DNA of 45,592 nucleotides from a virus. Location: IMG/VR virus record IMGVR_UViG_3300045988_166338; one strand, given 5' to 3'. The position numbers and the translations under genes were made by a program. Positions within the stretch are counted from its first letter, which is position 1, and each line of letters starts with the position of its first letter. The notes under the pieces are model-generated. The model ran no database searches and was not told where the DNA came from. It saw nothing but the letters and a program-made list of their open reading frames with translations. Positions 12,767-45,473 of the stretch are shown here, in pieces.

Positions 12767-12805
12767 ACACTGGCACTGAGCCGGCGAAGCCGGCGGGAGG
12801 AAGAT

Positions 12806-13189: not shown

Positions 13190-13192
13190 CAA

Positions 13193-20360: not shown

Positions 20361-20398
20361 AAAATAGGCGGTAGGGCTTCGCTCTACCGCCTATTTTT
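20361..20398. terminator. Bidirectional rho-independent terminator between the convergent early (+) and late (-) modules
   Basis: Perfect 14-bp stem AAAATAGGCGGTAG / CTACCGCCTATTTT with a 9-nt loop. A runs lie on one side and T runs on the other. Confidence 0.8.
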
Positions 20399-20429: not shown

Positions 20430-23400
20430 CTAGTCAAGAAATCTTTGCAGTGCGTACATACCAAGGGGAGAAAGGGACTCAGGATGCTCGGCTGCTTCAC
20501 GCAACATACGCATCTTGGTATCGTCCGGGGCTTCCTCGATAGCACGCATCAGCGCACTTGTCATAGCCTCAGGGTCGCCGCCGTACAATCTGACTGCCTC
20601 GGTAATCAGGCCGTCCAGGGACGTACCTTGGCGTGTAGCCGTTTTGACGAGTTTCATCAGACGCTTGCGGGACTCCTGCATCTCAGCTTCGCGTGTACGT
20701 TCAGTTCTGTCGATGTCCTGCAGGGCCAGGTCTTCATAGCTCATAATGCCAGATACCAGTTTCAGCCGTCCGACCGTTTCGTCCCAGAGGCTTTCAGCGT
20801 CACGGGCATCGAAGATGATATTGCCGGCCGCCGATACAGAGTAGCCTTGCGCGCCCTGCAGCACCCTACGCACGAACGTGAGCGGTATCTCGGTCGAGGC
20901 CAGTTCCCACGTACTCTGCATACCACCGCCAGTCATCAGTTCAGCCATGGCCTTGCTGGTGAAGTTATACGTGCCTTTGACAAAGTTAACGTTAGCAGGA
21001 CTGCGTAACGAAGATAGCAGACCGCGCTCGTTCTGATGCATAGCTCGTCCGATGCCCAAGTTCATGAGGCCGGCGATGCCACCGTCCAGCAATACGTCCT
21101 GACGCCATTCATCGTCGAAGTCATACTTGCTGACCCACAGGCCAACGAACGGAGCGGACTTAGCACCGAACAGCATGGAGTTAGTAAGGTTAGCAGCTAT
21201 GAACTTTCGGTTATCGTGATTAGCGATGAAGTCCAGATTGCGGAACATCAAGTTCAAGTTGAACGTCTGGAACAGACCAAGCGGTGCAGTAACAGGATAG
21301 TTCGACAGGCCAATACGTTTGAACGGTGAATAGCTACCCATGGACTCCTCTGCGAACTTGACTGCCCATTCGATGCGCTGCTTACCGTCAAGTTTCAGGA
21401 CGCTGCCTGCATACTCATCACCAGCGAACAAGGCCAAGATACGCGACCATTCTTCTGTCTTCATCGTCGGCCAGGACAGGATGTTCTCAGTTGTCTTCCA
21501 CGCTTTGCCAAGCAGAGTGGTAGGCTGCTTCGGATTGTAGAACTCCTCCAACGCCTTGATGTCGCTGCCGACCACGCCGGCAATACGGGCACGTTCAACC
21601 AGAGCTTTATCAGCATCAGTCATGCCGAACATACGCCGGATGGAACGTGTAGCGAAGTGCATCGCGTCCATGTAGCCGGCCCCGCGTATACTTCCATCTG
21701 CCATCTTGAACCCTGTACGCGTCATATACTCGCTTGCGTTTTCACGTGTGAGTGGACGGTACCAGTTCGTAGCCAGAGGAATACCTTGCAGGGTAGACAA
21801 CAAGTTAACCAACGCGCCGCGGACGTTGCCCCAGGTGTAATACGACTTGCTGACCAGGCCGGTCAGTTCTGCCATGCGGGCACGCAAAGGTTCACGCAGT
21901 TCGTTGCCAACCATCTGGTATAGGTTCTCAGGGTCTAGGTCAGGTTTGGCCTTGCTCCATCCGCGCGACCAGTTCAGGAAACCGTCCAATGCCTCGTCAA
22001 GTTTCCGCACGAACGGAATATCTGGCAGGTTGCCAACCAGCACTTGCTCCATTTCCTTCATCGTTTTCTCTGACACGACGGAGGAAGCCTGACGCATGAG
22101 CGGGTCGTATGCAGCCTGGGCTACACGGATAGAGGCAGCGTCCACGGCCTTGACCTGGGCCTGCATCGTAGCACGCAAACGTTCAAACGGATTGTTATAC
22201 ATGCTACCGCCCTGATGGCCAAGGGATTTGCCGGACGTCTCCGCACCGATGTATCGAGGCTCCATGCCGGATTTCATCATACGCTGTTCGAACTGCTTGT
22301 TGCCTTTAGCAATTTCCCAGCTCCACTTATTGGCACTGCCTTGCTGTGCCTGCTGAGCCAGGAACTTCTGCGCGCTGACCTCATCCATGAACGTTACGTA
22401 GTCCTTGCCGCCGGCCATGCCATTGCGTTCAAGTACACGGTAGAACTGTTCAGGGTTCTTTTCCATCATTGCGATGTAGTGTGCTTTCATGCTGGCCTGA
22501 CCTGTAACAGGGTCAAGTGTACTGGCGTAGCCCTTGGCACGGTCGATAGCTTTCTGGATGGCATCGAACTTGCCCTGTATCTCTTTGCCAAGTTCCGTTG
22601 AAATCTTGGCAGGAACAGGTGTACCGCTCTTTTGGTACAGGCTCGTAACGTCCGGCAGCAGCCAGTCACACTCGTCAGCGTCCAAGCCAAACCGTTCAAA
22701 GTTACGAGCATTAGCAGTGGTATCCTTGACTTTGATAGTCAAGCTGCCATCATCTAACTTGTGATAGCCGGGTTCAACGTCAAAGCCGCGCGTCAGAGCA
22801 TCCTGCATCTTGCCAACTTCAAGAACAGCCGCCTGTACAGCCTCGTCCTTGTCGTTAAAGATGAGCTTGGAAATTTCCTCCTGTTGAGCCAACACGCTAC
22901 GCTTGTTTTCCAGACGCATACGGTTTACTTTCTCACCAATGTTTTCCACAGCCTTGCGCATCGGGTCGTCCATGGCTTTCTGGTCGTAGGTTGATATCAA
23001 ACCGGACGCTCCGTATTCTTTGGTATCAGCCTTGCCGAACGCATCAATGAAGTCATTAGTCAGCTCACCAGCCTTGCCCGTCAGTTCAGGCAGGTAGTCT
23101 TTGCCGCTCGTGATGAAGTTATCCGTTGAATGATACTCCAGATACGCGATACGTTCCTGTGCAGCTTTCATAAGGTAGCCATTGCTGAGCGGGTCAGTGT
23201 GGCGTTTAAAGGTAAGCAAAATGGTGTTCTTATTGTTACGAGCCTCAGCATTGTTGATGCCTTCAAATATAGACCCGGTATCCTTATCAATCCAAAAGGC
23301 CGACTCATCTTTGGCAACCAATTTATCAAAGCTTTCAGATGAACGTTTGAACATTTTAGTGTTGATGTTCTTAGTAGCATCCATTCGGACAGAGTAATCA

Positions 23401-24638
23401 TGTAGCTTTGAGTGCATAGCATCGGCCAATTTCTCGCCGGCTTTGTGCGTATGGGGTACGATGGTGTGGAACGCACTCTTGTTGCCTTCACCGAAGCAGA
23501 TGTCGTGCAGACGTCTGAACAGTACTTCATGCACCGTATCGTTCTTGTTGGTGAAGAAGTCCGTGGCCACGCCAAGTACCTTAGCCATAGTCAAGCGATA
23601 CTGCTGTTCAGCCTGTCCTACGAACGCGTCAGCAATGCCACCTTTAGCACCACCGCCGGCCGCGCCTGCGTCGCCGAGTGCAATCTCGTGTTGCAGGTTT
23701 CGGGTTTCCATGTACACGGTAGCGTCCCTGACAAACGTCCCGTCCTTGCCGAAGTGATTGTAGATGCCCTGGTCTTGCAGGTCTTTGACAGCCTCGCGGA
23801 CCGCGGCAGTGTCCTTGGTCTGGGCTGCGACGCGCATCTTCTTGGCCGCTTTAGCCCAGCGGTAACCACCGACCATAGAGCCGAGGATAGCGTTGATGCC
23901 AAGGTTAGTAGCCACAGCCGGTTTATCAATATGCACGCCAGTTTCGTCTTCCTGCATGCCCCACCAGCCAATCGTAGCCATGTCAGCAGCGAAGCCTTTG
24001 GCAGTTTCACGCGTAGCTGTTGTCCAGAATGACGGAATATCAGCAAGCGTCCCCTTTAAGGTAGCCGCGTCCATGCTGCTATTTCCACCAAGCGTTTTAA
24101 TGAACGTACTAACCTTACCGGTCCCAAGAAACTTAGCACCTGCCAGCCTGGACCAAATGAGGCCCCCGGCCTCGCCCGTGCCAATAGTAGCAGCGGCGAT
24201 AGCGGGGAAGTCAGCTGCCAGGTTCGTGGCTGTGCTGTGTTCTGTTTGAATACCCTCAAACCAGTCACCGACGCTGTCACCGAACAGATCACGAACACCT
24301 TTAGTTACTGACTCTACCATGCTCTTAGCTACCACAGGCCGTCCTGCAGCCCAGGCCATCATCTTTGCACCTGTATCATAAGCCTTAGCTGCGGCTAACG
24401 ATGACCCCACTAGCAAACCCTGCGCAGTTCCGGCTACACCACTAACTATCTTGGACAGGACGTTATCGCCCTCATCGCTATCTTCTTTCTGCGTAACAAC
24501 TTCAGGTATATCGTACTGGCCTGGCAGGTACGTGACATTATCAGGCGTTAACGTAGTCTGGCTATACGGCATTGCTTCGCCTACACCGAGGGGCCCCGTA
24601 AGGGACCCCGCTGCATAATCTTCAATAAATTGTTCCAT
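20430..24638 (-). CDS. Large internal virion/ejection protein (1402 aa)
   Basis: Last gene of the late operon. Its size and position resemble the podovirus internal core proteins. Confidence 0.45.
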   Translation of the reverse strand: MEQFIEDYAAGSLTGPLGVGEAMPYSQTTLTPDNVTYLPGQYDIPEVVTQKEDSDEGDNVLSKIVSGVAGTAQGLLVGSSLAAAKAYDTGAKMMAWAAGRPVVAKSMVESVTKGVRDLFGDSVGDWFEGIQTEHSTATNLAADFPAIAAATIGTGEAGGLIWSRLAGAKFLGTGKVSTFIKTLGGNSSMDAATLKGTLADIPSFWTTATRETAKGFAADMATIGWWGMQEDETGVHIDKPAVATNLGINAILGSMVGGYRWAKAAKKMRVAAQTKDTAAVREAVKDLQDQGIYNHFGKDGTFVRDATVYMETRNLQHEIALGDAGAAGGGAKGGIADAFVGQAEQQYRLTMAKVLGVATDFFTNKNDTVHEVLFRRLHDICFGEGNKSAFHTIVPHTHKAGEKLADAMHSKLHDYSVRMDATKNINTKMFKRSSESFDKLVAKDESAFWIDKDTGSIFEGINNAEARNNKNTILLTFKRHTDPLSNGYLMKAAQERIAYLEYHSTDNFITSGKDYLPELTGKAGELTNDFIDAFGKADTKEYGASGLISTYDQKAMDDPMRKAVENIGEKVNRMRLENKRSVLAQQEEISKLIFNDKDEAVQAAVLEVGKMQDALTRGFDVEPGYHKLDDGSLTIKVKDTTANARNFERFGLDADECDWLLPDVTSLYQKSGTPVPAKISTELGKEIQGKFDAIQKAIDRAKGYASTLDPVTGQASMKAHYIAMMEKNPEQFYRVLERNGMAGGKDYVTFMDEVSAQKFLAQQAQQGSANKWSWEIAKGNKQFEQRMMKSGMEPRYIGAETSGKSLGHQGGSMYNNPFERLRATMQAQVKAVDAASIRVAQAAYDPLMRQASSVVSEKTMKEMEQVLVGNLPDIPFVRKLDEALDGFLNWSRGWSKAKPDLDPENLYQMVGNELREPLRARMAELTGLVSKSYYTWGNVRGALVNLLSTLQGIPLATNWYRPLTRENASEYMTRTGFKMADGSIRGAGYMDAMHFATRSIRRMFGMTDADKALVERARIAGVVGSDIKALEEFYNPKQPTTLLGKAWKTTENILSWPTMKTEEWSRILALFAGDEYAGSVLKLDGKQRIEWAVKFAEESMGSYSPFKRIGLSNYPVTAPLGLFQTFNLNLMFRNLDFIANHDNRKFIAANLTNSMLFGAKSAPFVGLWVSKYDFDDEWRQDVLLDGGIAGLMNLGIGRAMHQNERGLLSSLRSPANVNFVKGTYNFTSKAMAELMTGGGMQSTWELASTEIPLTFVRRVLQGAQGYSVSAAGNIIFDARDAESLWDETVGRLKLVSGIMSYEDLALQDIDRTERTREAEMQESRKRLMKLVKTATRQGTSLDGLITEAVRLYGGDPEAMTSALMRAIEEAPDDTKMRMLREAAEHPESLSPLGMYALQRFLD

Positions 24639-24653
24639 GCTATTTCTCCTTAA

Positions 24654-27095
24654 CTACGCTGACTTTGCAGTTACGCCTGCTGCAGCGTTAGTTCGTTGAG
24701 TCTGTTCTGTCTTTCTAATCATGTCATTGACTGCAGCACTGACCAAGCTGTCAATGTCAAAGCTATTACCACACAACGTCCGGATGAACGCGATGTTTTC
24801 CTTGCTCTTGTACAAGGCCTTTTTAGCTTCAGTAAGGATTGTGCTATAGTTAGCACGAACAGGAGCCACAGCATTGGCAGCCAAGGAAGCCACAACATCA
24901 TTAATCGTGCTAATTATGTGGGCGACACCAAAGTCTTTGGCATTACCGGTCAGCATATGGTCCTCAATTTTAAGTCCCTTGTTTGTAGCAATCTTCGTAT
25001 AGCCTGATTGAGCCATGGCATTTTCCATCTCAGGTGACAAACGTACCGAAAGCGGCCGATTAGCAAACTGTGTCTGCAGGTAAAAGGCCTGTGCACTTTG
25101 CAACCGTTCCTTAGTCAGTTCAGACGGTACAAGACCTTGTAACTGCTGGCTAGACCGCATTATCGTAACCAAGTCTTTCATAGTATCAGCAGATATCTTT
25201 GACTGTATGCGGTTAAGCACTTTCTCAGACATCTTCTTTTTACCACTTCGCACTGCACTGAATAGCTCCTGCAGGTCTTTCATCATCGCAGGGTCGTCCA
25301 GTGGAATGCCAGCGTTTACTTGGTTCAGCATGAGGCCCAGGCTAGATTTAACTGCTACCATTACTGGAGCGTCCGTACCAGAGAATGCTACGTTAGAAGC
25401 AATCATGACATCATGGGCATCTCTGATATCGACACCATTGATGCCACCCTCGAAGAACTTGCCCAGTACTCTGTCCCCGGCGTTTTTGCTGTTCTTCAGT
25501 TTCTCGTTAGCTTCCTGTGCAACCTCGACTTGGTCTGCACGAAGTGAACCGCTAACCGGGACCGGCAGGCCGTCCGGGCCAATCACCTGCGTAGTAGCTG
25601 CAGCCACGGATGCGTTAATATCTCTGGCCGCTTCGGTGTCCGATACTTGACTGAGCAGGTTATCGTTAGCTTCCGTGAGGTTCTTCATCAACGGGGTGCC
25701 ACGAGCAATAACAGCCATGTCCAGGTTGTTGTTGAACGCTTGCACCGTCCCGTAGGTATTGACAATATTCGCGATATCGCGAGAGTTAAACACCGTAGCC
25801 AAAGCTGCCATAGCTTCTTTCTGCTGTCCGGGCAGCTTAGCAGCGTTGCCCTGTGCAATAGATACGGCCATAGACCGCAGTTCAGGAACTGCCATCATAG
25901 CCATGGCACGGCGTGCACCTTCACGGCTGAAACCGTATTGCATCGACAGTTGGTTAGCATAGGCAAGCTGGCCATCCGACCAAAGCTCATCTTGTTCTGC
26001 AGCTGCGTTAATCATGCCAATAGCCTGGCCAACATCCAGCAAACCTTGCTGTTTGTTGCTCCAAATCCCACCGAGCACACCAGCCATAACGCGTGATTTA
26101 ACGCGGGCCGGAGCATTCTTCAAGTCTTTCGTAGCAGCTTCCATGCTCTTACGCATAGCTGCTTCCGAGTCCTGCAAACGTTTAGCCTTATCGCTGTCAG
26201 CGAATGCAGCCAATGCACCTTGTTCAGCACGATAGTTAATGTGTTCACCGCTTGCATGATAGATGCCGTCAGCATAGTCCTTGCCGGCACCAATTCTGTG
26301 CTGGTCGTTAAATGCCTGAGCCTGAGCAATCTTTGCATCGATAGCTTCGCGTGCTGCCTCATTGGTTTCATAGGCCATCTTGGTAGCATTGATTTTCACG
26401 CCCCATTCTGTAACCATGCCATTGTACAATGCGATAGCATTGGACACTTCGTAGGACGGATTGCGATGCACCTGGTTGTAAATCATGCCAATCAGCGCTG
26501 CATGGTTAGAGTAACGCTTGACGCTTTCTGCATCCCCGCCAGGTGTGAAAGCCTGCAAGAAGCCTTGTTTGATGTCCAGCTCGCCCTGCACAGCGTTCAT
26601 AGCCATCTGCCGGGCATCCTTCAACTGCTGCGGTTCCTTGACCTCTTCCACCTTGGTAGGCTTCATTGAGTATTCTTTGGACTTCAGGTCGAACATCTGA
26701 TTGGCAGGACGCATCGGAGCTTGCTGTGCTTGGTCAGCACGTACATCGTTGATGACGGTCGGAAGCGGAACATCGCCGCCTTGAGGCGTAACAGCCTGAG
26801 GCGCAGTAATCAGCAAGTCATCAGCGTCGCTGTCAGCATTGTGCATGATTTCCGGAGCCGGAGCTGCGTTACGGTTGACACTGGCTTGAGCATTTTGAAC
26901 ATAGGCATTAGCTTCGTCAGGGGTGTCATTGGCTGTCAATGCATTGATAGGGTTCTTTTCCTGCATAGGATTGAACGGCTGGCCGCCATAGCGGTCAAAA
27001 AGATTAATACGCTGTGCGGCCTGTTCCGTGTCACTCACGATAGTCTGGTCGATATCTTTAGGTCTGGGTTCTGTGAACTTGTCAAATAATCCCAT
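24654..27095 (-). CDS. Internal virion/ejection protein (813 aa)
   Basis: Large late-operon ORF with a low-complexity, Ala/Gln-rich sequence. Confidence 0.4.
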   Translation of the reverse strand: MGLFDKFTEPRPKDIDQTIVSDTEQAAQRINLFDRYGGQPFNPMQEKNPINALTANDTPDEANAYVQNAQASVNRNAAPAPEIMHNADSDADDLLITAPQAVTPQGGDVPLPTVINDVRADQAQQAPMRPANQMFDLKSKEYSMKPTKVEEVKEPQQLKDARQMAMNAVQGELDIKQGFLQAFTPGGDAESVKRYSNHAALIGMIYNQVHRNPSYEVSNAIALYNGMVTEWGVKINATKMAYETNEAAREAIDAKIAQAQAFNDQHRIGAGKDYADGIYHASGEHINYRAEQGALAAFADSDKAKRLQDSEAAMRKSMEAATKDLKNAPARVKSRVMAGVLGGIWSNKQQGLLDVGQAIGMINAAAEQDELWSDGQLAYANQLSMQYGFSREGARRAMAMMAVPELRSMAVSIAQGNAAKLPGQQKEAMAALATVFNSRDIANIVNTYGTVQAFNNNLDMAVIARGTPLMKNLTEANDNLLSQVSDTEAARDINASVAAATTQVIGPDGLPVPVSGSLRADQVEVAQEANEKLKNSKNAGDRVLGKFFEGGINGVDIRDAHDVMIASNVAFSGTDAPVMVAVKSSLGLMLNQVNAGIPLDDPAMMKDLQELFSAVRSGKKKMSEKVLNRIQSKISADTMKDLVTIMRSSQQLQGLVPSELTKERLQSAQAFYLQTQFANRPLSVRLSPEMENAMAQSGYTKIATNKGLKIEDHMLTGNAKDFGVAHIISTINDVVASLAANAVAPVRANYSTILTEAKKALYKSKENIAFIRTLCGNSFDIDSLVSAAVNDMIRKTEQTQRTNAAAGVTAKSA

Positions 27096-29081: not shown

Positions 29082-29316
29082 AAGCGTGGTATCCTGCTTC
29101 TAAATTGTTAAGCCTGTGGTGGGCAGAGCGCGTGCTTTCTTCGCATCTTGCCAACCGGGTTTGTATCTCTTGGTAGTCCTTAAGCTGAGTGCTCAGGGCA
29201 TCCTGCTTGTACTCGACCACCGCGAGGCGCCTATCCATCTTGGCTATGAAACACCAAAAGGTTATTACGTAGCCGGCGACAGATATGATTGCGTCAAGAC
29301 TTATGGTCCACTGCAT
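29047..29316 (-). CDS. Membrane protein with N-terminal TM plus coiled coil (holin or lysis-regulator candidate)
   Basis: 'AIISVAGYVITFWCFIA' TM segment, then a heptad-rich region. Overlaps the endolysin start. Confidence 0.35.
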   Translation of the reverse strand: MQWTISLDAIISVAGYVITFWCFIAKMDRRLAVVEYKQDALSTQLKDYQEIQTRLARCEESTRSAHHRLNNLEAGYHAYEQGDMENHRR

Positions 29317-29509
29317 CTTTCACGTGTCCTTCTTTTATTCGGTCCAATGCAAGCGTCTGCGAGAAATACTTTCGTTCCGCAAACTCTTGTTTCTTCCCGA
29401 TGTTGAAATTGTCTACGGGCCTGAAGTAACCCATACATCTGGTCCATATCTCACACGGAGTCCGTTCTGCATCATCGAGTTTGATATCTTCTTTCTTCTC
29501 TTCTTCCAT
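29294..29509 (-). CDS. 71-aa protein resembling the glycyl-radical C-terminal segment of anaerobic ribonucleotide reductase NrdD
   Basis: GGAGG RBS 6 nt upstream of ATG 29509. 'PCEIWTRCMGYFRPVDNFNIGKKQEFAERKYF' aligns with the NrdD consensus 'TRRvCGYLG..d.RpFNaGKqeEv..Rv' (TR-C-GY / FN-GK-QE). Preceded by a 280-nt G-rich structured leader. Confidence 0.35.
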   Translation of the reverse strand: MEEEKKEDIKLDDAERTPCEIWTRCMGYFRPVDNFNIGKKQEFAERKYFSQTLALDRIKEGHVKDAVDHKS

Positions 29510-29790
29510 ATCGTGCCTCCATTGCACCAGCGAGGTGACTCACCGCCAGTGCCAAATTGCTCCCGAAACCAAACAACCTCCCAGCCCGTCCCAACGGAGC
29601 GTCCTGTCAGACGCTCCTAATCAACAATCGTGCCGGCTTCGCCAGCACTCCTCCCGCTCGCTCCGCTCGCTCCAACCAACCGGCTCGGCTTATCGCCTCG
29701 CCATCAACAGTGTGCCAGCCTCCAGACTTGGCACGCGTCCTGGCACGCGAACGTGGCACGCAGGCTTGACTATCGGGACGGGCCGGCCCG
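29510..29790 (-). other. GC-rich noncoding element A (late-mRNA leader of the NrdD-like ORF), paralogous to 41611..41947
   Basis: Shares blocks with element B: 'ct(c/t)ccgaaac', 'agcccgtccca', 'cctcccaacgg', 'ctcgctccgctcg', 'ccagcctc'. Contains the perfect hairpin GGAGCGTC-ctgtca-GACGCTCC (29596..29617). Overlapping ORFs have Arg/Gly-rich noise composition. Confidence 0.55.
29729..29762. repeat. Tandem direct repeat TGGCACGCG x3 (12-13 bp period), with an inverted GTGCCA just upstream (29712..29717)
   Basis: 'tTGGCACGCGtccTGGCACGCGaacgTGGCACGCAgg' read from the sequence. Candidate protein-binding array. Confidence 0.6.
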
Positions 29791-29967
29791 GTCATTTGCG
29801 TTTAATGACAGAGAGTTTCTCGACCACAGTCGCGATTTTGGCTACAACGGCATCGTCGCGTTTGCTGGGCGTCAACTTGGTGATAGCCGTGGCCATCGAA
29901 ACGGCCAGGCCGATGATGGTGAACAGGTCGTCCCAATGTGCTTGAATGTATGCAAATACTTCCTGCA
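29791..29967 (-). CDS. Small membrane protein (58 aa). A holin-like candidate
   Basis: Strong RBS ('aaaggagaaagaaaATG'). Hydrophobic 'LFTIIGLAVSMATAITKL'. Below the ORF-track cutoff, found by reading the sequence. Confidence 0.4.
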
Positions 29968-30051
29968 TTTTCTTTCTCCTTTGTTAGTGATTACAATTAT
30001 AGACTAGCACAGTTGCCCGTGCTAGTCCATGTAAATTTGGCAGAGGGTAGG

Positions 30052-30463: not shown

Positions 30464-33361
30464 TTAGTTGCCCTCTGCATAGATAAAATTGAAGGTGTCA
30501 ACAGTAAAGTTTGAATACGCAATAGTAAATGTATCGCCTTTTCGTACAGGTATGAATGTCCGAGCATACCCAGTGGGGCCCGGTGACAGTAGTGAGCTTA
30601 GTGTACTAGTTTGACAAAACAGTACAAGATAACCAGTGCATGCACCACCTATGTATACCCACCCGTTTGCAGGTGCTGTATAGGATGCTTCTGATGCACC
30701 TAATGTCAGCTCGGTATGTCTCATGCTAGGCATGCCCATTTCTGACAGCACCGCTTTCCCGGCCACGCTGAAGTTATCTGCATTGATGTTAGCTTTAGTA
30801 GCTGCAGCACCTTGTACCCAAGCCGTAGTCGGCACAATATTAGAAGAGTCTGTAGCATCCGGCATAGTAGACAATATAGTAACATCATCATTGAACCGTA
30901 TCCGGTCGCCAGCCGAAGCACTCTTGTTGAAGTCAAATAGCCAGTTGTATTCGTTGCCCATGCATCTCAAGCGGCCTGATGAATAACCGATATTAACATC
31001 GTAGTTCAGTTCTGCATCAGTATTACAGGTGAAGGCAGTACCCTCATACCCGTCCCCGACAACGAGTATGTGCGCGGTAACGGTGCCTTTGGCTGTGATA
31101 GAGTTAGCAGTAAGGTCAGATGTTTCAGTAATACTGTCCTGCTTTCCTGCAATGGCAGCGTTGAGAGTTACTATACTGGTTTCATTAATTCTGACGTTAT
31201 CACCTGTCAGTACCACCGCACCGGTATTGCCGTTCACCGAGGCTACAGCCCCGCCGCCACCGGCCGCAGCAATAGCAGCATTAACCCACTGTGTAGTAGC
31301 CAGCTGCTGGCTGCTGTCGCTGGCTGCAACAGTTGCAGAGCAGGTAACGGCACCGGTGAATTCCGTGGCAAAGTTATGCGTAGCCTTTGAGTCTGTTCTG
31401 GACACCAAGATACCAGTGGGCGATTTGAATTGGTAGCCAATGTGAAGGTCATTTCCCATAAAAAGCATACCCGTACCACGACGGCCAATGATACCACCAA
31501 GGTAAACGCCGTTAGGGCGGAACTCGATTTCGCCGTCCTGGCCGGTTAGTTTAAGTGTTCCTACATCTCCGGTACTGCTATTTGCCAGCGTAATAGAGTT
31601 AAGACTGAGTACAGAGTCTTGGACAATCTCACTCTGTTTTCCGGAAATCCTTGATGACAGTTCAGCCCAGTCCTGGTATATAGTATTAGCAGCGTTCGGG
31701 TCCGTCTTGATATCTTGGCCGGACAGCACAACCGCACCAGTTTTACCATTGACGCTGGACACGGCCCCGCCGGTTCCGCCACCACCACCTCCACCAGCTG
31801 CAATGGCCGCCTGTACCCATTTGGTATTGGGCACTTTGTCAGAGGAGTCAGCTGCATCTGCAATGTCAGGAACAGTCGGTGTAACACCAAACGCTGCCAG
31901 CCACTTGCCAGAGGTTGTAGTATCTGAACGCAGAACTTTGAACGGGACACCGTCAGGTTTATAGTCATTTATCAGACCAATTTGCAGGCCATTTACAAAC
32001 CGACCAATCAGTTCGCTGTAGATATATCGTTTGGTAGCATAGGCCTGTCCGCTTGCATTACCCAGACGAATAGCTTCAGTACTGGACGATTTGTCGCCTT
32101 TGTCGAAGTAAGTAAGCAGGGATGTACCAAGTTGAGTTTCGCTGTCGTGCATGTCCAAGTATGACAACAGCCCAGTGCCGGAGTCCTCAGTCTTCAACAT
32201 GACGTATGAGTTGTCGGTATCAGATGTAGCTCTGTGTGCCAGCATAGTCACTGAACTTTTAGACCCATTAGTCTTGGTGCGTTCACCATAAATGCTAAGC
32301 GTCCCAAGTATAGAAAGTTTCGGGTTGGTTTCAGCATCATCCTCATGCGTATTAGTAACGATGAATGCACTTTCATTAGTGCTTCTGTTCTTGACGTACA
32401 GACCATTGTTAGCACGGATAGGCAAATCGCAGCTCAGCTGATGTGTCCAAGGCGTTTCAAACGTACTTCTGAGGCCAATGTGTAAATCAACAGGAGAGCT
32501 GTCGCTATCGCCGACAGTAATCTCCATGCGGCCCGGAACTTTAACCTGCATCAGTGTATTGGTCATGTACAGCTGCGCCGGGTATTCCCAGTTAGAAGTA
32601 CGAACATCTAATGTAATGCTGCTTGCAGTGCCTTGTGTAGCAGGGGTAACTTTGATGCTTGAGGTCTCATTGCGCTCGGCAGAGTATTCCGCAATTAAGT
32701 TAGCACCGCCACCATTAGCAGTAATGCTTTTGCAAGTAATATCGCTACCCGGGCTAACTCCTCCGCCGCCACCTGCCTGGATTGCGTTTTGCACCCATTC
32801 CGTATTCGGAACGCGAGTGCTACTATCATTTGACGAGAGGGCGCCGGTAACTGACAGCTTGTCAAAGCTTGCCTCGCTGGGCAGGCCAGTAGAGATAATC
32901 TCGCTGGCCCGCAACGCCCAACCTCTCGCTGAGTGTTCACCACCATACGAGGCTACGTCTTCATCGCTACCCTCTGCCCAGATTTCAGCTTCATCAGCAA
33001 ACGCCGAGCAGCTTTGCAGTACCAGCTGTACCTCTGCCTTTAGGGTATTGATACTTTGCTGCTGTTCGTTGGCCTGCGTAATCAGCTGTTGGATTTCAGC
33101 CACCTGTGTAGAAATGTCCACTTCCATCTGAGCAATGCGCGCAATGATATCATCACCGACCGCTTGCATAGCCTTGCCATCCACGATAATGAACAGGCTG
33201 GCCACATGGGGCGTTGTCAAGTCATTGTACCCGATGAACATTGTCCGGTTGTATTTGTCCTCGGTGTTCCAAAAGTTCCAGTCGTCCTCGGACTTTGCAA
33301 TTACCGGCATCTTCCATTTAAAGTATGCTTTAGCCGGATTTCTTATTTCGTTATCAGCCAT
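30464..33361 (-). CDS. Tail fiber protein with four Phage_fiber_2-type repeats
   Basis: Repeated 'VPNTxWVQxAIxAGGGGG...SVNGKTGAVVLxGxDI' units (VPNTEWVQNAIQAGGGGG, VPNTKWVQAAIAAGGGGGGG..SVNGKTGAVVLSGQDIK, LATTQWVNAAIAAAGGGG..SVNGNTGAVVLTGDNVR, VPTTAWVQGAAATKA). GGAGG RBS. Confidence 0.75.
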   Translation of the reverse strand: MADNEIRNPAKAYFKWKMPVIAKSEDDWNFWNTEDKYNRTMFIGYNDLTTPHVASLFIIVDGKAMQAVGDDIIARIAQMEVDISTQVAEIQQLITQANEQQQSINTLKAEVQLVLQSCSAFADEAEIWAEGSDEDVASYGGEHSARGWALRASEIISTGLPSEASFDKLSVTGALSSNDSSTRVPNTEWVQNAIQAGGGGGVSPGSDITCKSITANGGGANLIAEYSAERNETSSIKVTPATQGTASSITLDVRTSNWEYPAQLYMTNTLMQVKVPGRMEITVGDSDSSPVDLHIGLRSTFETPWTHQLSCDLPIRANNGLYVKNRSTNESAFIVTNTHEDDAETNPKLSILGTLSIYGERTKTNGSKSSVTMLAHRATSDTDNSYVMLKTEDSGTGLLSYLDMHDSETQLGTSLLTYFDKGDKSSSTEAIRLGNASGQAYATKRYIYSELIGRFVNGLQIGLINDYKPDGVPFKVLRSDTTTSGKWLAAFGVTPTVPDIADAADSSDKVPNTKWVQAAIAAGGGGGGGTGGAVSSVNGKTGAVVLSGQDIKTDPNAANTIYQDWAELSSRISGKQSEIVQDSVLSLNSITLANSSTGDVGTLKLTGQDGEIEFRPNGVYLGGIIGRRGTGMLFMGNDLHIGYQFKSPTGILVSRTDSKATHNFATEFTGAVTCSATVAASDSSQQLATTQWVNAAIAAAGGGGAVASVNGNTGAVVLTGDNVRINETSIVTLNAAIAGKQDSITETSDLTANSITAKGTVTAHILVVGDGYEGTAFTCNTDAELNYDVNIGYSSGRLRCMGNEYNWLFDFNKSASAGDRIRFNDDVTILSTMPDATDSSNIVPTTAWVQGAAATKANINADNFSVAGKAVLSEMGMPSMRHTELTLGASEASYTAPANGWVYIGGACTGYLVLFCQTSTLSSLLSPGPTGYARTFIPVRKGDTFTIAYSNFTVDTFNFIYAEGN

Positions 33362-35956: not shown

Positions 35957-35960
35957 TGTA

Positions 35961-35990
35961 AAAATAAAGGGCCGGTCTTTCGACCAGCCC
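35961..35990 (-). terminator. Rho-independent terminator (minus strand): GGGCUGGUC-gaaa-GACCGGCCC plus UUUAUUUU
   Basis: 9-bp stem with one G-U pair and a U-tract on the minus-strand transcript. On the plus strand it is flanked by an A-run on one side and TTT on the other. Confidence 0.65.
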
Positions 35991-35996
35991 TTTGTG

Positions 35997-36533
35997 CTAA
36001 GCTCTGAAATACAGACGATATGCGTTGGTGTAACTGCCACCTTTAAACAGACGAATGGGCGAAGGAAGCTGAGAGCCGATCGAGATAATCTCAGTATGGG
36101 CAGGTTCCTGCGTGTCCGTCATGGCACAGAACAAGTTCGTATAGGCCTTGTCCCAGTTATCGTTCTCGGCGCCACAAGTGAACGTTACCGGCGTGAACAG
36201 CAATGCTGTAACGGTTTGGGATGATACCGTAGTTCGGATAACGTCCTGGATGGTACACGTTTGCCGGCTGTACCCCTGAGCCGCAGTCGGTTCTGTCCAA
36301 GCATGAATTTCATTAGTGTCATCTTTGGTGCTGACACCGGACAGGCACCCTACTTGCCACGTGGCCGGCGTAACCTTCTGGGCAATAACGCTCGTCAGGA
36401 TGTCGATGCCGGCGTACGTAAGGAAGTTTTTGGTCCGGCACACTTCGTTGCCGGCTTTATCGTACGTGATGTATTCACCGCCGTACGGCTTCAAGCCGCG
36501 CAGGGCTTCAGAGAGTTTCTTGTAATCAATCAT
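35997..36533 (-). CDS. Structural protein (178 aa)
   Basis: Late-operon ORF whose stop and start overlap its neighbours. Confidence 0.4.
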   Translation of the reverse strand: MIDYKKLSEALRGLKPYGGEYITYDKAGNEVCRTKNFLTYAGIDILTSVIAQKVTPATWQVGCLSGVSTKDDTNEIHAWTEPTAAQGYSRQTCTIQDVIRTTVSSQTVTALLFTPVTFTCGAENDNWDKAYTNLFCAMTDTQEPAHTEIISIGSQLPSPIRLFKGGSYTNAYRLYFRA

Positions 36534-37599: not shown

Positions 37600-38790
37600 T
37601 CACGGTTTCAACCCGCCCATCAAGCCGGTGATGATGCCGTGGCAGCGTTCCTGACGGACACGCAAACCGACCTGCGTAACCAGCGCGTTCATCGTGACGA
37701 ATTTAATCGGCGAGAACTTGCGGACGTTGGTCTTTTCGAAGTACACCGTGTTAATCAACGTCGGGTTGAACACGACGGCCGTACCTCTGTAAGCGGCCAG
37801 TTCATCGAACAGCTTGTAGCCGACGAAGTTAATCGTGCCCGAACCGGTTTCCAGACGCATAATCTTGATACCGTATTGGGCTTCGCCGTACGAGATGTTG
37901 TAATGAGCTTTGTCCGAAACCATGTCGTTCAAGCGGTGCAAGAACGCATGAGAGACGAACGCGATGTGGCCGTTGTTGCTGTGGCCTTTAACAGTACGTT
38001 CCTGAATGGTGGACAGGGCCGTGTTAATGGCCGACAGCGAAACTTCGCCGTCCGAGATGTTGATGCGGTTCGTTTTAATCTGAGCCATCAGACCGGCAGT
38101 CGTGTACAATTTCTTGTCCTGGCCGTCTTGGTCGCGGATGATGTTTTCGGAAGCTTTACCGAACATCAAGGCGCGTTCAACCTGCATCGCATGGTCATCC
38201 AACGAACGTTCGCGGATATACTGTTCCGGCTTGTAGCCATCCACAGTCTTTTCTTTCAGAGCATCTTCATCGATTTCCGTCGTGCTGACGATTTTCTGAA
38301 TGAAGTTTTTCTGGAAGGTCGTGTGGAAGAACTTGGGCGGCGGCAGGTAGGAAGCTTCCGGAGTAGCCTGAGCCAACAGGACGAATTCATCATTCGCCGT
38401 GACAGCTTTGGCTTCCGTGCCGGAGAACCCACGTACGACCGTCAGTTTGTTACCGTCTTGTTCCGTGACATACATATCTTCACCCGTTGAGGTGTTAGAG
38501 ATGACGAACATCTTCAAGTTGGTGTTTTGAGCGTTGGCGACCGTGATTTCAGTTTTAGTCACGTCCGCTTCTGCTCCGCATTTGAAAATGGGGAAGTCGA
38601 TGGTTTCATCTTTCCATTCAAAGATGCGGCTGCTCGTAGACTGCGACGGCAAGGCCGACGTCAGAGCGAACAGATTTCCGTTGTCCCCGGGGTACGACGT
38701 CAGAATTTCCCGCGCGGCATCGTTCACAAAGAAGTTGCCGGCAGACATACCCGTGGTGAACAATCCTTTAATACCGAATTGCTGAGCCAT
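37600..38790 (-). CDS. Major capsid protein
   Basis: 396-aa ORF directly after the scaffold gene. AAGGAG RBS. Size and position fit an HK97-fold MCP. Confidence 0.65.
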   Translation of the reverse strand: MAQQFGIKGLFTTGMSAGNFFVNDAAREILTSYPGDNGNLFALTSALPSQSTSSRIFEWKDETIDFPIFKCGAEADVTKTEITVANAQNTNLKMFVISNTSTGEDMYVTEQDGNKLTVVRGFSGTEAKAVTANDEFVLLAQATPEASYLPPPKFFHTTFQKNFIQKIVSTTEIDEDALKEKTVDGYKPEQYIRERSLDDHAMQVERALMFGKASENIIRDQDGQDKKLYTTAGLMAQIKTNRINISDGEVSLSAINTALSTIQERTVKGHSNNGHIAFVSHAFLHRLNDMVSDKAHYNISYGEAQYGIKIMRLETGSGTINFVGYKLFDELAAYRGTAVVFNPTLINTVYFEKTNVRKFSPIKFVTMNALVTQVGLRVRQERCHGIITGLMGGLKP

Positions 38791-39612: not shown

Positions 39613-41547
39613 TTATTGTTGAGGCATACCGCCGAGCTGTTCCATCAGGATAGCTTCGGGCGACATAGCCGGTCCCTGTTCAGGTGTAGGCAGTGCAGCC
39701 TGTGTTTGCTGCGCAGCCTGTTCTTCCGGTGTAGGTGCAACGGCCGGGGCCGCAGGGCTTGCCTTGAATTGGTTAAAGTCGATGTTGCTGCCACGCAGAC
39801 GCAGAACATAGTTAATCGCACCATAGACGTCAAAGTTCTGCAGCACTTGCGGCATCTGCAACATGTTGTAGATAGCCTGCTGCAAAGCCTCAGCGACGCC
39901 GAGCTTATCAATGCCAGCCATGCCGTCAGCGATGACGTAGCGCAGATTGAGGCCGATGAAATTCGAGATATCAGCATCGTAGCGCTTGCCGTCCTTATCG
40001 TCGACGACCTCCAGTGATGTAACGTGACGCAGCAAGTTATCAACCATAATCTGACGCAACGGCGCCATCATCTGTGTATCAATGCTTGCAGCGACCAGGA
40101 CGTTACGCTTGTTGCCTGCCTGAACCGTGGCTGCGGCCTGGTACTGCGTTGCACGTTCCAACGAGGCAATCTGCTTGAGCATGTCCGTCGGGAAGATGCG
40201 CTGCATCATCTCCAGAGCCAGGTTGATGTCCTGCGGAATGTTCGTCAGGTTGACAGGGTTAGACAGCGGAACAACGTCCTGTGACAAAGGCTTATCCGGC
40301 ATCTGGCGCGTAGCAGGAACCACACCGCCCAGAGCAGCAGCCTTGGACATCTTCTGAATATCAAACACATCAGAGCTGACGCCAATCACGCCGCCTGCAA
40401 TGTTCTTCAACAATGAACGTTGGTAAGCAGAGAAAACAAATGAAATGAAACGCTGGCAAGAGATAAGCTGCGAGGCCAGCGAGCCGATGGTGTTGTAGTT
40501 TGTTTCAGGGTCGAACTGGAACATGCACACCGGCAGATACGAGCTTTCGGTATCCTCCGCGCCAACTACCCAGTGAGCAGAACGCAGCAAGGTGAACTTC
40601 CACACGGACGGTTCCGTGCTATCGGACAGGCCGAACAGTTTGGGGTAGATGCGTACGTACAGCGTAATCACGCTATCACCGCGAATGGTGATATCCGCAG
40701 AGGAGGGCGGTGTATAGTAGTCAGAGCAATCGCCGGACGTGACGGGGAAGATGTACGGGTCGTAGTCCTCGCCCTCCGGCAAGGCCCACACACCAAGACG
40801 CAACTTATCGAAAATTGCACTGCGCGTCATCATCTTGACGTAGCCGGCATATTCGCCTTCGCGATACATCTTATCCGGAGTAACGCGCTGGTCAAGTATC
40901 AAGTTGAAGATGTTCGTCGGAACCAGCTTGTTACCGGCCCGCAACGTGGAGGAAACCTCGGTACCATTGGGTGTGTCTTGGATTTCCTGCACAGCGTCCT
41001 CCGTCCAATCAACGAACACGCCGCCCAGGTTGCTAACCAGACCGTGCCGGAAAGCAGCAGTTAGCGCCGCGGAATGTGAGAACGTCTGAGCGTCCAGTTT
41101 GAGGCGGTCAGCGATAGCATTAGCGTAGGATGCTTTAGTGGGGTCAGCGTTAGCGGACCAGATGCCATCCTCGACAGTAATAGTAGAGCCGAGATAGGCT
41201 ACAGCGGACTCGACGTGAGCCTTTGCTGTGGTAAGGTTTGTGGGAGGAGGGGCAGTGGGATAGCCCTCTTTGTACTCATCGTCCAACAGCTTGTCCGTGG
41301 CGGAGTATTTCACGCGTCCGTTATACTCCTGGATGAGCCCCTCCAACGTTTCACGTTTATCACCCGCCGGGATGACGCGCCCCAGGAGTATCATATCCTG
41401 CAGGAAGTTCTGCAGTTTACAGTACTGTTCCTGGGACAACTTCGTCAAGATGTTTTCTGACGAGCGAAGATTGAAGCCAAGGGCGGACGCCGTAGTATCC
41501 GGTGCCTTCTTAGCTTTCGGTATTTTCTTTTCAAATTTAACAACCAT
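39613..41547 (-). CDS. Portal protein
   Basis: 644-aa ORF after the terminase genes. Start set at ATG 41547 (AAAGGA RBS), downstream of the predicted promoter. The ORF-track start 41610 would lie inside that promoter. Confidence 0.6.
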   Translation of the reverse strand: MVVKFEKKIPKAKKAPDTTASALGFNLRSSENILTKLSQEQYCKLQNFLQDMILLGRVIPAGDKRETLEGLIQEYNGRVKYSATDKLLDDEYKEGYPTAPPPTNLTTAKAHVESAVAYLGSTITVEDGIWSANADPTKASYANAIADRLKLDAQTFSHSAALTAAFRHGLVSNLGGVFVDWTEDAVQEIQDTPNGTEVSSTLRAGNKLVPTNIFNLILDQRVTPDKMYREGEYAGYVKMMTRSAIFDKLRLGVWALPEGEDYDPYIFPVTSGDCSDYYTPPSSADITIRGDSVITLYVRIYPKLFGLSDSTEPSVWKFTLLRSAHWVVGAEDTESSYLPVCMFQFDPETNYNTIGSLASQLISCQRFISFVFSAYQRSLLKNIAGGVIGVSSDVFDIQKMSKAAALGGVVPATRQMPDKPLSQDVVPLSNPVNLTNIPQDINLALEMMQRIFPTDMLKQIASLERATQYQAAATVQAGNKRNVLVAASIDTQMMAPLRQIMVDNLLRHVTSLEVVDDKDGKRYDADISNFIGLNLRYVIADGMAGIDKLGVAEALQQAIYNMLQMPQVLQNFDVYGAINYVLRLRGSNIDFNQFKASPAAPAVAPTPEEQAAQQTQAALPTPEQGPAMSPEAILMEQLGGMPQQ

Positions 41548-41581
41548 GGTAGTATTCCTTTTGGTTTGTTGCCATGTATGT

Positions 41582-41610
41582 ATACTAGCATATCTTATGG
41601 CAGATGTCAA
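41582..41610 (-). promoter_or_regulatory. Late promoter (minus strand): TTGACA-17-TAGTAT with TGc
   Basis: Minus-strand 'gttcTTGACAtctgccataagatatgcTAGTAT', about 30 nt upstream of the portal start. Confidence 0.55.
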
Positions 41611-44312: not shown

Positions 44313-44341
44313 AGCATAACATAAACTATCTGCTTTGTCAA
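44313..44341 (-). promoter_or_regulatory. Late operon promoter (minus strand): TTGACA-17-TATGCT with TGt
   Basis: Minus-strand 'gttcTTGACAaagcagatagtttatgtTATGCT', about 45 nt upstream of TerS. Confidence 0.55.
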
Positions 44342-44475
44342 GAACTTTTTGTGTGAAAATTCAGGACATCGAGGTCAGGTATGGTGCAAGGGAGGGTTTG
44401 AGGTTGAATATGAGTTGAAAATTTTTGTGGAAAAATACGAGAGGCATCATATGTAAGGGCGCGGCGTGGAAGTTG

Positions 44476-45420: not shown

Positions 45421-45473
45421 AAGATTGCTAAGATACCGATGATATGATATGCTATACTATGCTATGCTTGATG

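Follow-up and report, generated by a model that had tools for sequence, protein, structure and literature searches.

The stretch of DNA analyzed here (the window) is a complete phage genome of 45,592 nt, IMG/VR record IMGVR_UViG_3300045988_166338, from an uncultivated podovirus of ~45 kb. Replication functions are encoded on the plus strand between ~0.8 and 20.4 kb and late genes on the minus strand from 44.3 to 20.4 kb. Three elements in these operons, which we call A, B, and C, carry arrays of small hairpins and are the subject of this report. A takes up the entire gap that separates two genes, one for a 58-aa membrane protein, bounded by its stop codon, and one for a 71-aa protein that resembles the C-terminus of NrdD, bounded by its ATG. 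The elements and their immediate neighbors are as follows.

29510–29791, minus strand: element A, noncoding, inside the lysis cassette
29792–29968, minus strand: 58-aa membrane-protein gene, upstream of A
29294–29509, minus strand: 71-aa NrdD-C-terminus-like gene, downstream of A
41611–41947, minus strand: element B, noncoding, from the stop codon (41948–41950) of the large terminase gene to the −35 hexamer of the portal promoter
41948–43609, minus strand: large terminase (TerL)
41582–41610, minus strand: portal promoter, sigma-70-type, TTGACA (41605–41610)–17 nt–TAGTAT; bounds B and lies outside the element
39613–41547, minus strand: portal protein
12767–12905, plus strand: element C, a smaller third member, oriented in the gene sense within the early/replication operon

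Kinship and structure of elements A and B

The initial annotation, made from the letters of the window, had singled out A and B as two diverged paralogous noncoding elements in the late operon, and much of that description holds. On the plus strand A consists of 40% C and 24% G and B of 39% C and 24% G, so that both are G-rich in late mRNA as proposed (~40% G and ~24% C on the minus strand, the sense strand of the late operon). The gaps that they occupy do stand out, the remaining gaps of the late operon being no longer than 100 nt. Their noncoding character was confirmed, because a stop codon, a frameshift, and non-triplet indels in relatives indicate that neither is translated. The tempting open reading frame (ORF) across A has 62 codons and starts within an ATGA overlap with the upstream stop codon; among relatives (designated by L numbers) it is interrupted by a stop in L008 and shifted by +1 in L007, and its own stop is read through in L008 and L009. 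A 1-nt indel in L007 disrupts all six frames across A, and B differs from its closest diverged homolog (in L018, a relative with 87% TerL identity) by several 1- and 2-nt indels. The relatives do not carry coding sequence at these positions, which would have contradicted the initial annotation, but noncoding elements that are homologous or similar in style; others lack a spacer altogether.

A and B are also related beyond composition, as had been suggested. They have 44 7-mers, 21 8-mers, and 10 9-mers in common, numbers that none of 1000 dinucleotide-preserving shuffles reached (expected 12.8, 3.6 ± 2.5, and 1.0, respectively), and their local Smith–Waterman score was matched or beaten in 10 of 1000 shuffles. 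CGAGCGGAGCGAG, TGGGACGGGC, and TGGCGAAGCC are the longest words found in both. Among the blocks originally listed, ccgaaac, gcccgtccca, ccagcctc, and the exact 13-mer ctcgctccgctcg were recovered, whereas cctcccaacgg is whole only in B and A has tcccaacgg; the blocks are real and not a product of C-richness. The proposed collinearity applies to the 3′ ~110 nt, which align well (GGGACGGGC ... TTTCGGRAGCAA ... TGGCAC ... ACCTCG.CTGGTG ... GGCAC), but the upstream modules are reordered or repeated. From these comparisons we conclude that A and B are related but mosaic, not simply collinear, and that a pair of diverged paralogs is better described as mosaic members of a modular family that has three or more copies in the genome (A, B, and C).

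The sense strand of A folds with a z of −4.45. In the predicted structure a long-range closing helix, invariant among relatives, encloses ~190 nt of hairpins, and the stretch TGGGACGGGC from its 3′ arm recurs exactly in B at 41745–41754. The parts of A, in 5′ to 3′ order on the sense strand, are listed below.

29773–29786, minus strand: 5′ arm of the predicted closing helix, CCGGCCCGTCCCGA, pairing with 29581–29594 in the minimum-energy and centroid structures
29729–29761, minus strand: three direct repeats of GCGTGCCA with a period of 12–13 nt, the reverse-complement orientation of the TGGCAC word
29656–29670, minus strand: hairpin GCGAGC-GGA-GCGAGC, a GCGGAGC mini-hairpin between tandem G·A, holding the 13-mer common to B
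29630–29648, minus strand: hairpin GTGCTGGC-GAA-GCCGGCAC, 8 bp including one U·G wobble on the sense strand
29596–29617, minus strand: hairpin GGAGCGTC-TGACAG-GACGCTCC, with variation among relatives confined to the loop
29581–29594, minus strand: 3′ arm of the predicted closing helix, TTGGGACGGGCTGG, containing the family word GGGACGGGC
29524–29552, minus strand: hairpin GCACTGGC...GCTGGTGC in the 3′ domain common to B, its arms bearing TGGCAC and GGTGCA

B has a conserved core with five hairpins (H0–H4), and its 3′ domain is homologous to positions 29511–29594 of A. At the 5′ position where A has its GCGTGCCA repeats, B of the L018 type carries three to four copies of GTGCCA.

41650–41905, minus strand: conserved core of B, 7 of 256 columns variable, 98.2% mean identity
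41869–41885, minus strand: hairpin H0, GAC-GA-GC-GGA-GC-GA-GTC, in a 40-nt block identical in the clade with 87% TerL identity
41834–41852, minus strand: hairpin H1, GGCC-GAGCGAAGCGA-GGCT
41810–41826, minus strand: hairpin H2, GGGTGCC-GGA-GGCACCC, stem invariant, loop GGA or GAA
41784–41801, minus strand: hairpin H3, GGCCGGC-GGTA-GCCGGCC, stem invariant, loops of relatives GGTA, GGGA, GAA, and GGA
41700–41725, no strand assigned: hairpin H4, GGGTGGC-GAA-GCCACCC in the sense direction; the plus strand reads as a canonical intrinsic terminator, GGGTGGCTTCGCCACCC TTTTGCTT
41644–41754, minus strand: 3′ domain of B, with GGGACGGGC, TTTCGGAAGCAA, TGGCAC, ACCTCGGCTGGTG, and GGCAC

A strand-specific family of hairpin arrays

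In close relatives the elements equal promoters in their degree of conservation and surpass the neighboring genes. Mean pairwise identity is 97.8% in A, compared with 94.3% and 91.6% in the flanking coding sequences, and 12 of 284 columns of A vary among four relatives (10.9%–13.4% in the flanking coding sequences). The B core compares with 94.9% identity for TerL and portal coding sequence and with 81% for the variable region encoding the TerL tail; the island that contains C (12750–12905) reaches 93.4%, next to coding sequences of 73.6% and 66.7%. These alignments indicate that the elements are under purifying selection.

Between clades the sequence is largely replaced, and position, hairpin layout, and loops persist. 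A covariance analysis across related phages, which the initial annotation had proposed, revealed compensatory changes in the local hairpins. The best set consists of four sequences from a sister clade (described below), in whose B-like alignment 11 predicted pairs show double changes versus 6.0 ± 1.6 in shuffled alignments (2 of 500 shuffles); the covariation score is 0.136 versus 0.078 after shuffling (0 of 500), with slid controls at 0.03–0.06. One sister-clade hairpin exists in four paired versions (GGCACC/GGTGCC, GGTGCC/GGCACC, GGCGCC/GGCGCC, and GGTGC/GCACC), all with a GAA loop, and another has been replaced wholesale (GGCGGGGC...GCCCCGCC versus GGAAGTTGGC...GCCAACTTCC). The A-position elements of L027 and L028 differ by the change from ATGACC/GGTCAT to ATGGGC/GCCCAT. 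Comparison of B with the L018 clade gave two further cases: H4 changes from GGGTGGC/GCCACCC to GGCGGC/GCCGCC around the same GAA loop (U-A to C-G), with the T-tract retained, and H1 changes from GGCC/GGCT to GGCG/CGCC (one compensatory pair change and one G·U to G-C), with a G·U variant in L032. The hairpins are thus kept by compensatory changes. The long-range closing helices are invariant, so they lack covariation support and are predicted; in the sister clade such a helix would pair a 5′ tract resembling a ribosome-binding site, GAGGGAGCCAAGGAGGGAGC, with GCUCCUCUC..CUCUUC. A structured RNA is a plausible reading of these alignments, although the covariation would fit folding of RNA or of single-stranded DNA (ssDNA) of the same strand alike.

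The hairpins have a strict orientation. All 16 GAA-loop hairpins with a stem of at least 5 bp in eight islands lie on the gene-sense strand, as do the three in C, even though C is on the opposite DNA strand. GAA loops make up 16 of the 45 hairpin calls with such stems, most other loops being GNNA. Two C-to-U changes, in L007 (A hairpin 29524–29552) and L036, each preserve pairing as G·U, which only the sense strand allows. Every element is 52%–67% purine on its sense strand and contains 12%–19% T, except for an element of the relative L040 (L040b, 26% T). A strong G-skew is found in the window clade only; G-richness is therefore not a family-wide trait, as sister-clade elements have about as much G as C, yet are purine-rich and T-poor. 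Sites resembling terminators, with a hairpin and T-tract, face the antisense direction 19 times and the sense direction once (a weak site) in 11 islands, and every element has at least one antisense-facing site, for example the H4 site in B and GCGAGCTTCGCTCGC TCTTTCTTCT in C. We therefore rejected the idea that the elements are intrinsic terminators of their own operon, a sense-transcript hairpin with a U-tract being essentially lacking. An ordinary sense-facing terminator does exist elsewhere in the late operon, at ~35960–35997, followed by a promoter-like stretch. At 20361–20397, exactly where early and late operons converge, we noted a bidirectional terminator with a 17-bp stem (AAAATAGGCGGTAGGGC-TTC-GCTCTACCGCCTATTTT) that shares the GAA/TTC triloop style of the elements.

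Element C was flagged by its motif density, with two TGGCAC words, three GGAGG words, and three GAA-loop hairpins (12780–12794, 12847–12861, and 12868–12882). It extends over the ribosome-binding site and the first ~30 codons of the ORF at 12806–13189 and is the exception with respect to coding: the ORF that its 3′ two-thirds overlap remains open in relatives, with mostly synonymous changes. C shares 33 7-mers with A (5.4 expected), compared with one in the antisense orientation.

Relatives were recovered through TerL, capsid protein, tail protein, and ligase. Close relatives carry near-identical A, B, and C. The clade with 87% TerL identity (L018 and L030–36) has an intermediate B in which the 40-nt block is identical, four hairpins are in place, and the 5′ end bears GTGCCA heptamer repeats like A. 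A sister clade with 68%–72% TerL identity (L003, L006, L020, and L047) possesses elements of different sequence, 430–480 nt long at the TerL–portal position and ~220 nt long at the A position. L040 (65% TerL identity) has no TerL–portal element; its 265-nt element L040b follows the portal gene (4433–4697) and combines six (C/T)TGGCAC words, three of them exactly 19 nt apart, with GGACGGGC, GGAGGCTTGGCAC, and three terminal hairpins with GTTA, GCTA, and GAA loops. In several other clades only 57–105 nt separate TerL and portal genes, probably just a promoter. All B-bearing phages fall into one clade of the TerL tree, so that B entered the lineage a single time and has persisted through the turnover of its sequence. 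Across lineages, related elements thus occupy three intergenic sites: between TerL and portal genes, between the membrane-protein and NrdD-like genes, and between the portal gene and the next gene (L040).

A network of sense–sense 7-mer sharing joins A, B, C, the L018 and L003 versions of B, and L040b. Most links were reached in 0 of 300 shuffles, including A–B and A–C with the counts given above, A–L040b (29 versus 6.5 expected), and B with its L003 counterpart (36 versus 14.1); sense–antisense sharing is near background. Several words are enriched in the eight islands over which they were counted (C lies outside that set): GGCAC (29 observed versus 3.6 expected, in 8/8 islands), CGAAG (27 versus 3.6, 8/8), GCGAAGC (13 versus 0.9, 7/8), GCGGAGC (9 versus 0.4, 6/8), and CCGAAGG (8 versus 0.2), and likewise GGAGCG and AGGGAGC. 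From about seven distinct elements available, of 140–450 nt, we conclude that A, B, and C belong to one lineage-specific family of noncoding, strand-specific hairpin-array elements with a mosaic, modular build. Its hallmarks are GC hairpins of 5–8 bp with GAA or GNNA loops, purine-rich linkers that look like ribosome-binding sites, and the words (T)GGCAC, GAGCGRAGCGA, and GGACGGGC; a predicted long-range closing helix is a further one.

The 11-mer GAGCG(A/G)AGCGA amounts to a GCGRAGC mini-hairpin between G·A and was also observed outside the family. Very different bacteria (Bifidobacterium, Hungatella, Prevotella, Bacteroidales, Coriobacteriia, and Ruminococcaceae; contigs L054, L056, L088, L095, L103, L114, L115, L119, and L123) have it in tandem or dispersed intergenic repeats, and it appears to be a widespread and seemingly undescribed repeat building block. 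An origin of the elements from a host or from its extragenic repeats was rejected: the paired 11-mer has at least 120 hits in GTDB genomes from very diverse taxa, many of them intergenic tandem repeats, and none of the 80 GTDB stretches examined is related to the window. This spread marks the 11-mer as a widespread hairpin module rather than a host marker. Scanning IMG/VR with the pattern GGGACGGGC...TTTCGGRAGCAA returned the same clade only, plus one chance hit within a gene.

Genomic surroundings of the elements

The first 119 bases of the window are repeated exactly at its end (1–119 = 45474–45592). As 119 is a common assembler k-mer (that of MEGAHIT; related ENA contigs are named k119_...), we read this repeat as a sign of circular assembly, probably an artefact rather than a physical terminal repeat. 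No DNA similarity to the A or B regions was found among GenBank phages, and TerL identity to any cultured phage is below 26%. The early operon on the plus strand encodes a superfamily 1 (SF1) helicase, a PD-(D/E)XK exonuclease, a Sak4-like annealase, an ATP-dependent ligase, a family A DNA polymerase, a primase, and a dNMP kinase. Further genes of the late operon, all on the minus strand, are listed here.

37600–38790, minus strand: SU10-type major capsid protein
Late operon, minus strand: adaptor, tail proteins, and tail-fiber chaperone
Lysis cassette, minus strand: XhlA-like protein and M15 endolysin
24654–27095, minus strand: 813-aa protein, no Pfam or PHROG match, one weak PDB hit to a ribosomal protein (E = 0.0035), presumably by chance
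20430–24638, minus strand: 1402-aa protein, no Pfam, PHROG, or PDB sequence match

The genes of the last two proteins close the structural operon, and both products are candidate ejection or internal virion proteins. The promoters of the window resemble consensus sigma-70 sites. The portal promoter is kept in all relatives and directly follows the TerL stop in clades without B. Late promoters (window 41582–41625 and 44325–44345, L003 6060–6106, and L018) have a common extended upstream motif, AAAA(A/T)AGTTCTTGACA, and inverted repeats occur at or after the −10 hexamer (TGCCAT...ATGGCA at the portal promoter and CTAGCAC...GTGCTAG at ~30000); both may be operator or activator sites. Positions 1–830 and 45040–45592 form a large noncoding control region with a strong plus-strand C-skew and many short repeats (catagca/catacc units, atgcgta units at 780–820, and two copies of tatgtcaagccaagttc near 45350), which is likely to be an origin or regulatory region; the 200-aa ORF that crosses it (293–895, minus strand) is probably spurious. 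Its counterpart in L029 (2400–2760) is rich in AGCGGAGC words.

The stand-alone 71-aa protein encoded downstream of A matches only the extreme C-terminus of the anaerobic ribonucleotide reductase NrdD (PF13597 positions 531–562), with the motif TRCMGYFRPV of the glycyl-radical region, and is kept in L027, L028, and L029; by analogy with GrcA/YfiD it may be a glycyl-radical domain acting as a “spare part.” At the border of TerL and B, the sequence encoding the TerL C-terminal tail and the first bases past its stop (41906–41990, minus strand) consists of short tandem units, CAAGGT/CAAGGC (CAAGTGC in L018), whose number differs among close relatives (L001, L002, L017, and L018) and gives TerL lengths of 543–553 aa, which suggests a slippage-prone microsatellite. 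Gene boundaries, ribosome-binding sites, and promoters (13151–13250, 12750–12905, and 29969–30040) are 94%–98% conserved, and some adjoining gene bodies are only 67%–74% identical or occur as alternative alleles, such as two versions of the NrdD-like N-terminus and a tail protein (30464–33361) at 50%–84%. This combination suggests mosaic exchange at conserved junctions.

Possible functions and known systems

Our leading explanation, which we hold tentatively, is that the elements are cis-acting structured RNAs serving as one-way operon punctuation. As they begin at stop codons, lie inside operons, and lack sense-facing terminators, they should be transcribed. In the sense transcript, a long-range helix closing over several hairpins would form a compact folded domain. 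Such a spacer, untranslated, purine-rich, U-poor, and tightly folded, and in the window clade also G-rich and C-poor, would be a poor substrate for Rho and single-strand-specific RNases, that is, the opposite of a Rho loading site or RNase E target. It could separate translation units and set the processing or stability of adjoining mRNA segments, keeping terS–terL apart from the head genes and the small membrane protein apart from the lysis genes. Transcription from the opposite direction would be stopped by the hairpin-plus-U-tract terminators, and in the window clade the antisense RNA would be C-rich, the kind that Rho loads onto. The elements are noncoding, strongly conserved, and oriented with transcription, with compensated hairpins and antisense-facing terminator-like sites; from these properties we infer the action at the RNA level and the arguments on stability, insulation, and Rho.

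Several points weigh against operon punctuation, beginning with the fact that action at the RNA level is deduced from sequence. GAA triloops closed by C-G, GCGAAGC, and GCGGAGC are hallmark motifs of mini-hairpin DNA and favor a role in ssDNA. Five to eight hairpins and a conserved 250-nt core including linkers exceed what an exonuclease barrier or spacer should need, and the recurrent TGGCAC word and strong conservation of the linkers are left unexplained. The antisense-facing “terminators” could be a by-product of purine-rich linkers 5′ of hairpins, and no source of antisense transcription was found, the plus-strand promoter-like site beside B not being conserved in the L018 clade. Sister clades without B have their portal promoter 8–60 nt past the TerL stop and manage without the element, which is therefore accessory rather than structurally required for operon expression. 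The independent sequences are also few (about seven distinct elements, and four sequences in the best covariation set).

The main rival, doubtful in our view, places the action in ssDNA: sense-strand arrays of mini-hairpins would resist single-stranded DNA-binding protein (SSB) and nucleases and serve as primase or primosome entry sites, as secondary origins, or as barriers or hotspots for recombination by the exonuclease and Sak4. The loop and word statistics speak for this, with GAA in 16 of 45 loops and GCGAAGC, GCGGAGC, and CCGAAGG enriched. According to a 2026 review, these motifs and C-GAA-G hairpins are extraordinarily stable as DNA, clearly weaker as RNA, and poorly bound by SSB, and they occur at the primase sites of G4, St-1, and α3, ssiA of RSF1010 (CCGAAGG), and the promoters of the phage N4 virion polymerase (GCGGAGC; GGA or GAA loops) (PMC13037366). 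The phage has its own primase, SF1 helicase, family A DNA polymerase, ligase, PD-(D/E)XK exonuclease, and Sak4-like annealase, and mosaic junctions adjoin the elements (two alleles of the NrdD-like N-terminus at A and diverged genes around C). Should replication begin in the divergent control region (~44.4–45.6 kb and 0–0.8 kb), from which the operons diverge, the sense strand would serve on both arms as template of the lagging strand, but this premise on origin and direction is an assumption, and general priming of the lagging strand would need more than three sites per 45 kb. Loops at the A position of the sister clade are mostly true GNRA (GCAA, GUAA/GGAA, and GGGA), a classic RNA signature, and the G·U-preserving changes and sequestered tracts resembling ribosome-binding sites fit RNA as well. 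Nor was an N4-type virion RNA polymerase detected by sequence, and a template-strand promoter would yield gene-less transcripts antisense to terL.

Three further explanations are weaker than the ssDNA role. A trans-acting structured RNA cut from the operon transcripts, as a decoy or sponge for host defense or an RNA-binding protein or as a cofactor of assembly or packaging, is unlikely. B does lie between the genes for terminase and portal, the partners bridged by the packaging RNA of φ29, and each element would form a discrete closed domain that combines a predicted 5′–3′ closing helix with purine-rich linkers and numerous GNRA-like loops. Constraint is very strong over the entire 250-nt core, linkers included, A and B have a 3′ domain in common, and the accessory distribution among clades is typical of counter-defense functions. 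As no Rfam family matches, the RNA would be new; the φ29 packaging-RNA model is among those without a match. Near-complete sequence turnover at 70% TerL identity, with only style and position persisting, would be unusual for a specific fold or partner, the long-range helices are invariant and gain nothing from covariation, and we found no promoter–terminator pair or processing sites that would delimit an RNA. Recognition of duplex DNA, with (T)GGCAC/GTGCCA and GGACGGGC as an array of binding sites for a phage or host protein (a regulator of late genes, a factor of the nucleoid or partition type, or, at a pac-like site, the small terminase), strikes us as improbable. It would account for the excess of GGCAC in all eight islands, its presence in both orientations within A, the regular spacing at times (19 nt in L040b and L003, 12–13 nt for the three GCGTGCCA copies in A, and 7 nt in L018), and the position of B beside the portal promoter and terminase genes; with the 119-bp overlap being probably an assembly k-mer, headful (pac) packaging is possible. 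Single GGCAC sites vary among L003, L006, L020, and L047, however (TGGCAC versus GGACTC, GGCAC versus GGCAT), and several copies are merely hairpin arms. Covarying stems favor nucleic-acid folding over duplex recognition, the strict strand orientation of loops and composition is unexpected for duplex sites, and sigma-54 spacing and the −12 GC element are both unsatisfied. We give equally little credence to selfish or recombinational cassettes that spread between intergenic sites, are kept uniform by recombination, and only mark module boundaries. The three intergenic sites in different lineages, the inverted-repeat ends (the closing helices, seen in A), the position at module boundaries beside mosaic junctions, and the absence from sister clades would suit such cassettes. 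However, Pfam searches detected neither a transposase nor an HNH endonuclease nor a reverse transcriptase in the scanned ORFs of the window, and no target-site duplications or clean filled/empty junctions were seen, the empty-site relatives being 65%–67% diverged. The single gain of B, its long retention at the same site across clades of 68%–72% TerL identity, and the compensatory evolution of its hairpins argue for long-term selection and not for recent spread.

A bolder proposal, likewise doubtful, is that the elements represent an undescribed class of nucleic-acid domain beyond punctuation, either a structured trans-acting RNA of 250–450 nt that is released from operon transcripts (an anti-defense decoy or a terminase–portal packaging cofactor) or a lagging-strand mini-hairpin array recruiting primase or recombination, with TGGCAC and GAGCGRAGCGA as a recognition code. 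Few conserved noncoding elements have been described from uncultivated phages, since annotation pipelines look at genes alone, and here the most conserved stretches in three parts of a genome are strand-specific hairpin arrays, which one clade has kept for long while rewriting their sequence. Cis-acting RNA punctuation would amount to a new regulatory or insulator design, one-way and resistant to Rho and RNases, of use for understanding and engineering phage operons; action as ssDNA would extend mini-hairpin DNA biology to a new phage family and point to start sites of replication or recombination. Either way, the family supplies concrete motifs and coordinates open to testing.

Searching the whole window against Rfam 15 (4227 models, including φ29 packaging RNA, riboswitches, ribozymes, HEARO/GOLLD/ROOL, and CRISPR repeats) at gathering thresholds, a check that the initial annotation had also suggested, gave no hit. 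In E-value mode A, B, C, the B-like element of L003, and L040b reached chance-level scores of 8–22 bits versus gathering scores of 33–70, and ARAGORN found no tRNA. Several other candidates were rejected. Arrays of the CRISPR, TIGR, or ToxI type do not fit, as Tandem Repeats Finder gave only micro-repeats in A (9 nt × 2.2 and 12–13 nt × 3) and nothing in B. TGGCAC as part of a sigma-54 promoter fails on the GG-N10-GC spacing and on the TTGC of the −12 element, with TTGA, TTGG, or GTGA one base too close; the sole site with fitting spacing, in C, has CGGC in place of TTGC. N4-type promoters on the template strand would send transcripts antisense into terL, and no virion polymerase was detected. 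For an antisense small RNA in B, from the plus-strand promoter-like site at 41569–41596 to the terminator at 41700–41725, the promoter is not conserved in the L018 clade. Chi-like sites (GCTGGTG, AGCGG, and GAAGCGG) are not conserved among relatives and lie far from any genome end, the GGA loops of a possible CsrA-type sponge become GAA in relatives, and the G-runs needed for a G-quadruplex or R-loop are not conserved in the L018 and L003 clades. Complementary matches of 6–8 nt between element words and conserved regions of 16S rRNA are at chance expectation.

Among described systems, the repetitive extragenic palindromes and bacterial interspersed mosaic elements (REP/BIME) of enterobacteria, which act as 3′ mRNA stabilizers, come close in being GC-rich imperfect palindromes in transcribed intercistronic or 3′ regions, modular, mosaic, oriented, and untranslated, with hairpins in the transcript; our elements, too, are extragenic GC-rich palindromes in transcribed intergenic regions. 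They differ in number (three per 45.6-kb phage genome, REP hundreds per chromosome), in the lack of a RAYT (IS200-like Y1) transposase among the window ORFs scanned with Pfam and of a conserved head of the GTAG type, and in their much shorter hairpins (5–8 bp, GAA triloops) within closed domains of 140–450 nt that have words of their own (TGGCAC, GAGCGRAGCGA, and GGACGGGC). The mini-hairpin DNA signals of G4-type origins, RSF1010 ssiA/ssiB, and N4 promoters share the C-GAA-G, GCGGAGC, and CCGAAGG motifs, a stem of 5–7 bp with a 3-nt GNA loop, strand specificity, and a location in phage noncoding DNA (PMC13037366). The N4-type layout, in which a stem of 5–7 bp and a 3-nt GNA loop closed by C-G lie on one specific strand, is matched by 16 GAA-loop and further GGA-loop hairpins of the elements, all on the sense strand. 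Those signals, unlike ours, are single or consist of two or three hairpins with defined flanks and act on single-stranded or supercoiled DNA with a dedicated enzyme, whereas here arrays of 5–8 hairpins lie inside transcribed operons and no N4-like polymerase was found. As to a cognate enzyme, the primase (phrog_14296) gave no Pfam or PDB match and the 1402-aa and 813-aa proteins no Pfam or meaningful PDB match, although a diverged polymerase may escape sequence methods.

The boxB sites of λ nutL/nutR and the HK022 putL/putR sites, which act in cis on the machinery of transcription or translation as our elements may, resemble them as sets of at least two related noncoding hairpin elements with purine-rich GNRA-like loops in phage operons. 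The nut and put sites measure 15–70 nt (140–450 nt in our elements) and lie just downstream of the regulated promoter, whereas B is 2.4 kb from its own promoter and ends at the next one; boxA and an N- or Q-like protein were not identified. The Promoter early Stem-Loop (PeSL) cassettes of T4-type phages and the “boundary sequences” of mosaic phages are likewise short, conserved noncoding stem-loop cassettes by promoters, more conserved than flanking genes and situated at module boundaries or mosaic junctions. A PeSL, however, comprises ~50–100 nt (an early promoter and one stem-loop) flanking hyperplastic regions, whereas our elements are large and multi-hairpin and only B abuts a promoter. 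As regards miniature inverted-repeat transposable elements (MITEs), A has inverted-repeat closing arms and related elements occupy three sites across lineages; target-site duplications or a clean empty site are undefinable at the divergence of the empty-site relatives. The elements thus depart in at least one defining feature from each of these analogs (REP/BIME, mini-hairpin DNA signals, nut/put, and PeSL). We regard them as conserved, structured extragenic elements of an unstudied phage lineage that match no described RNA family.

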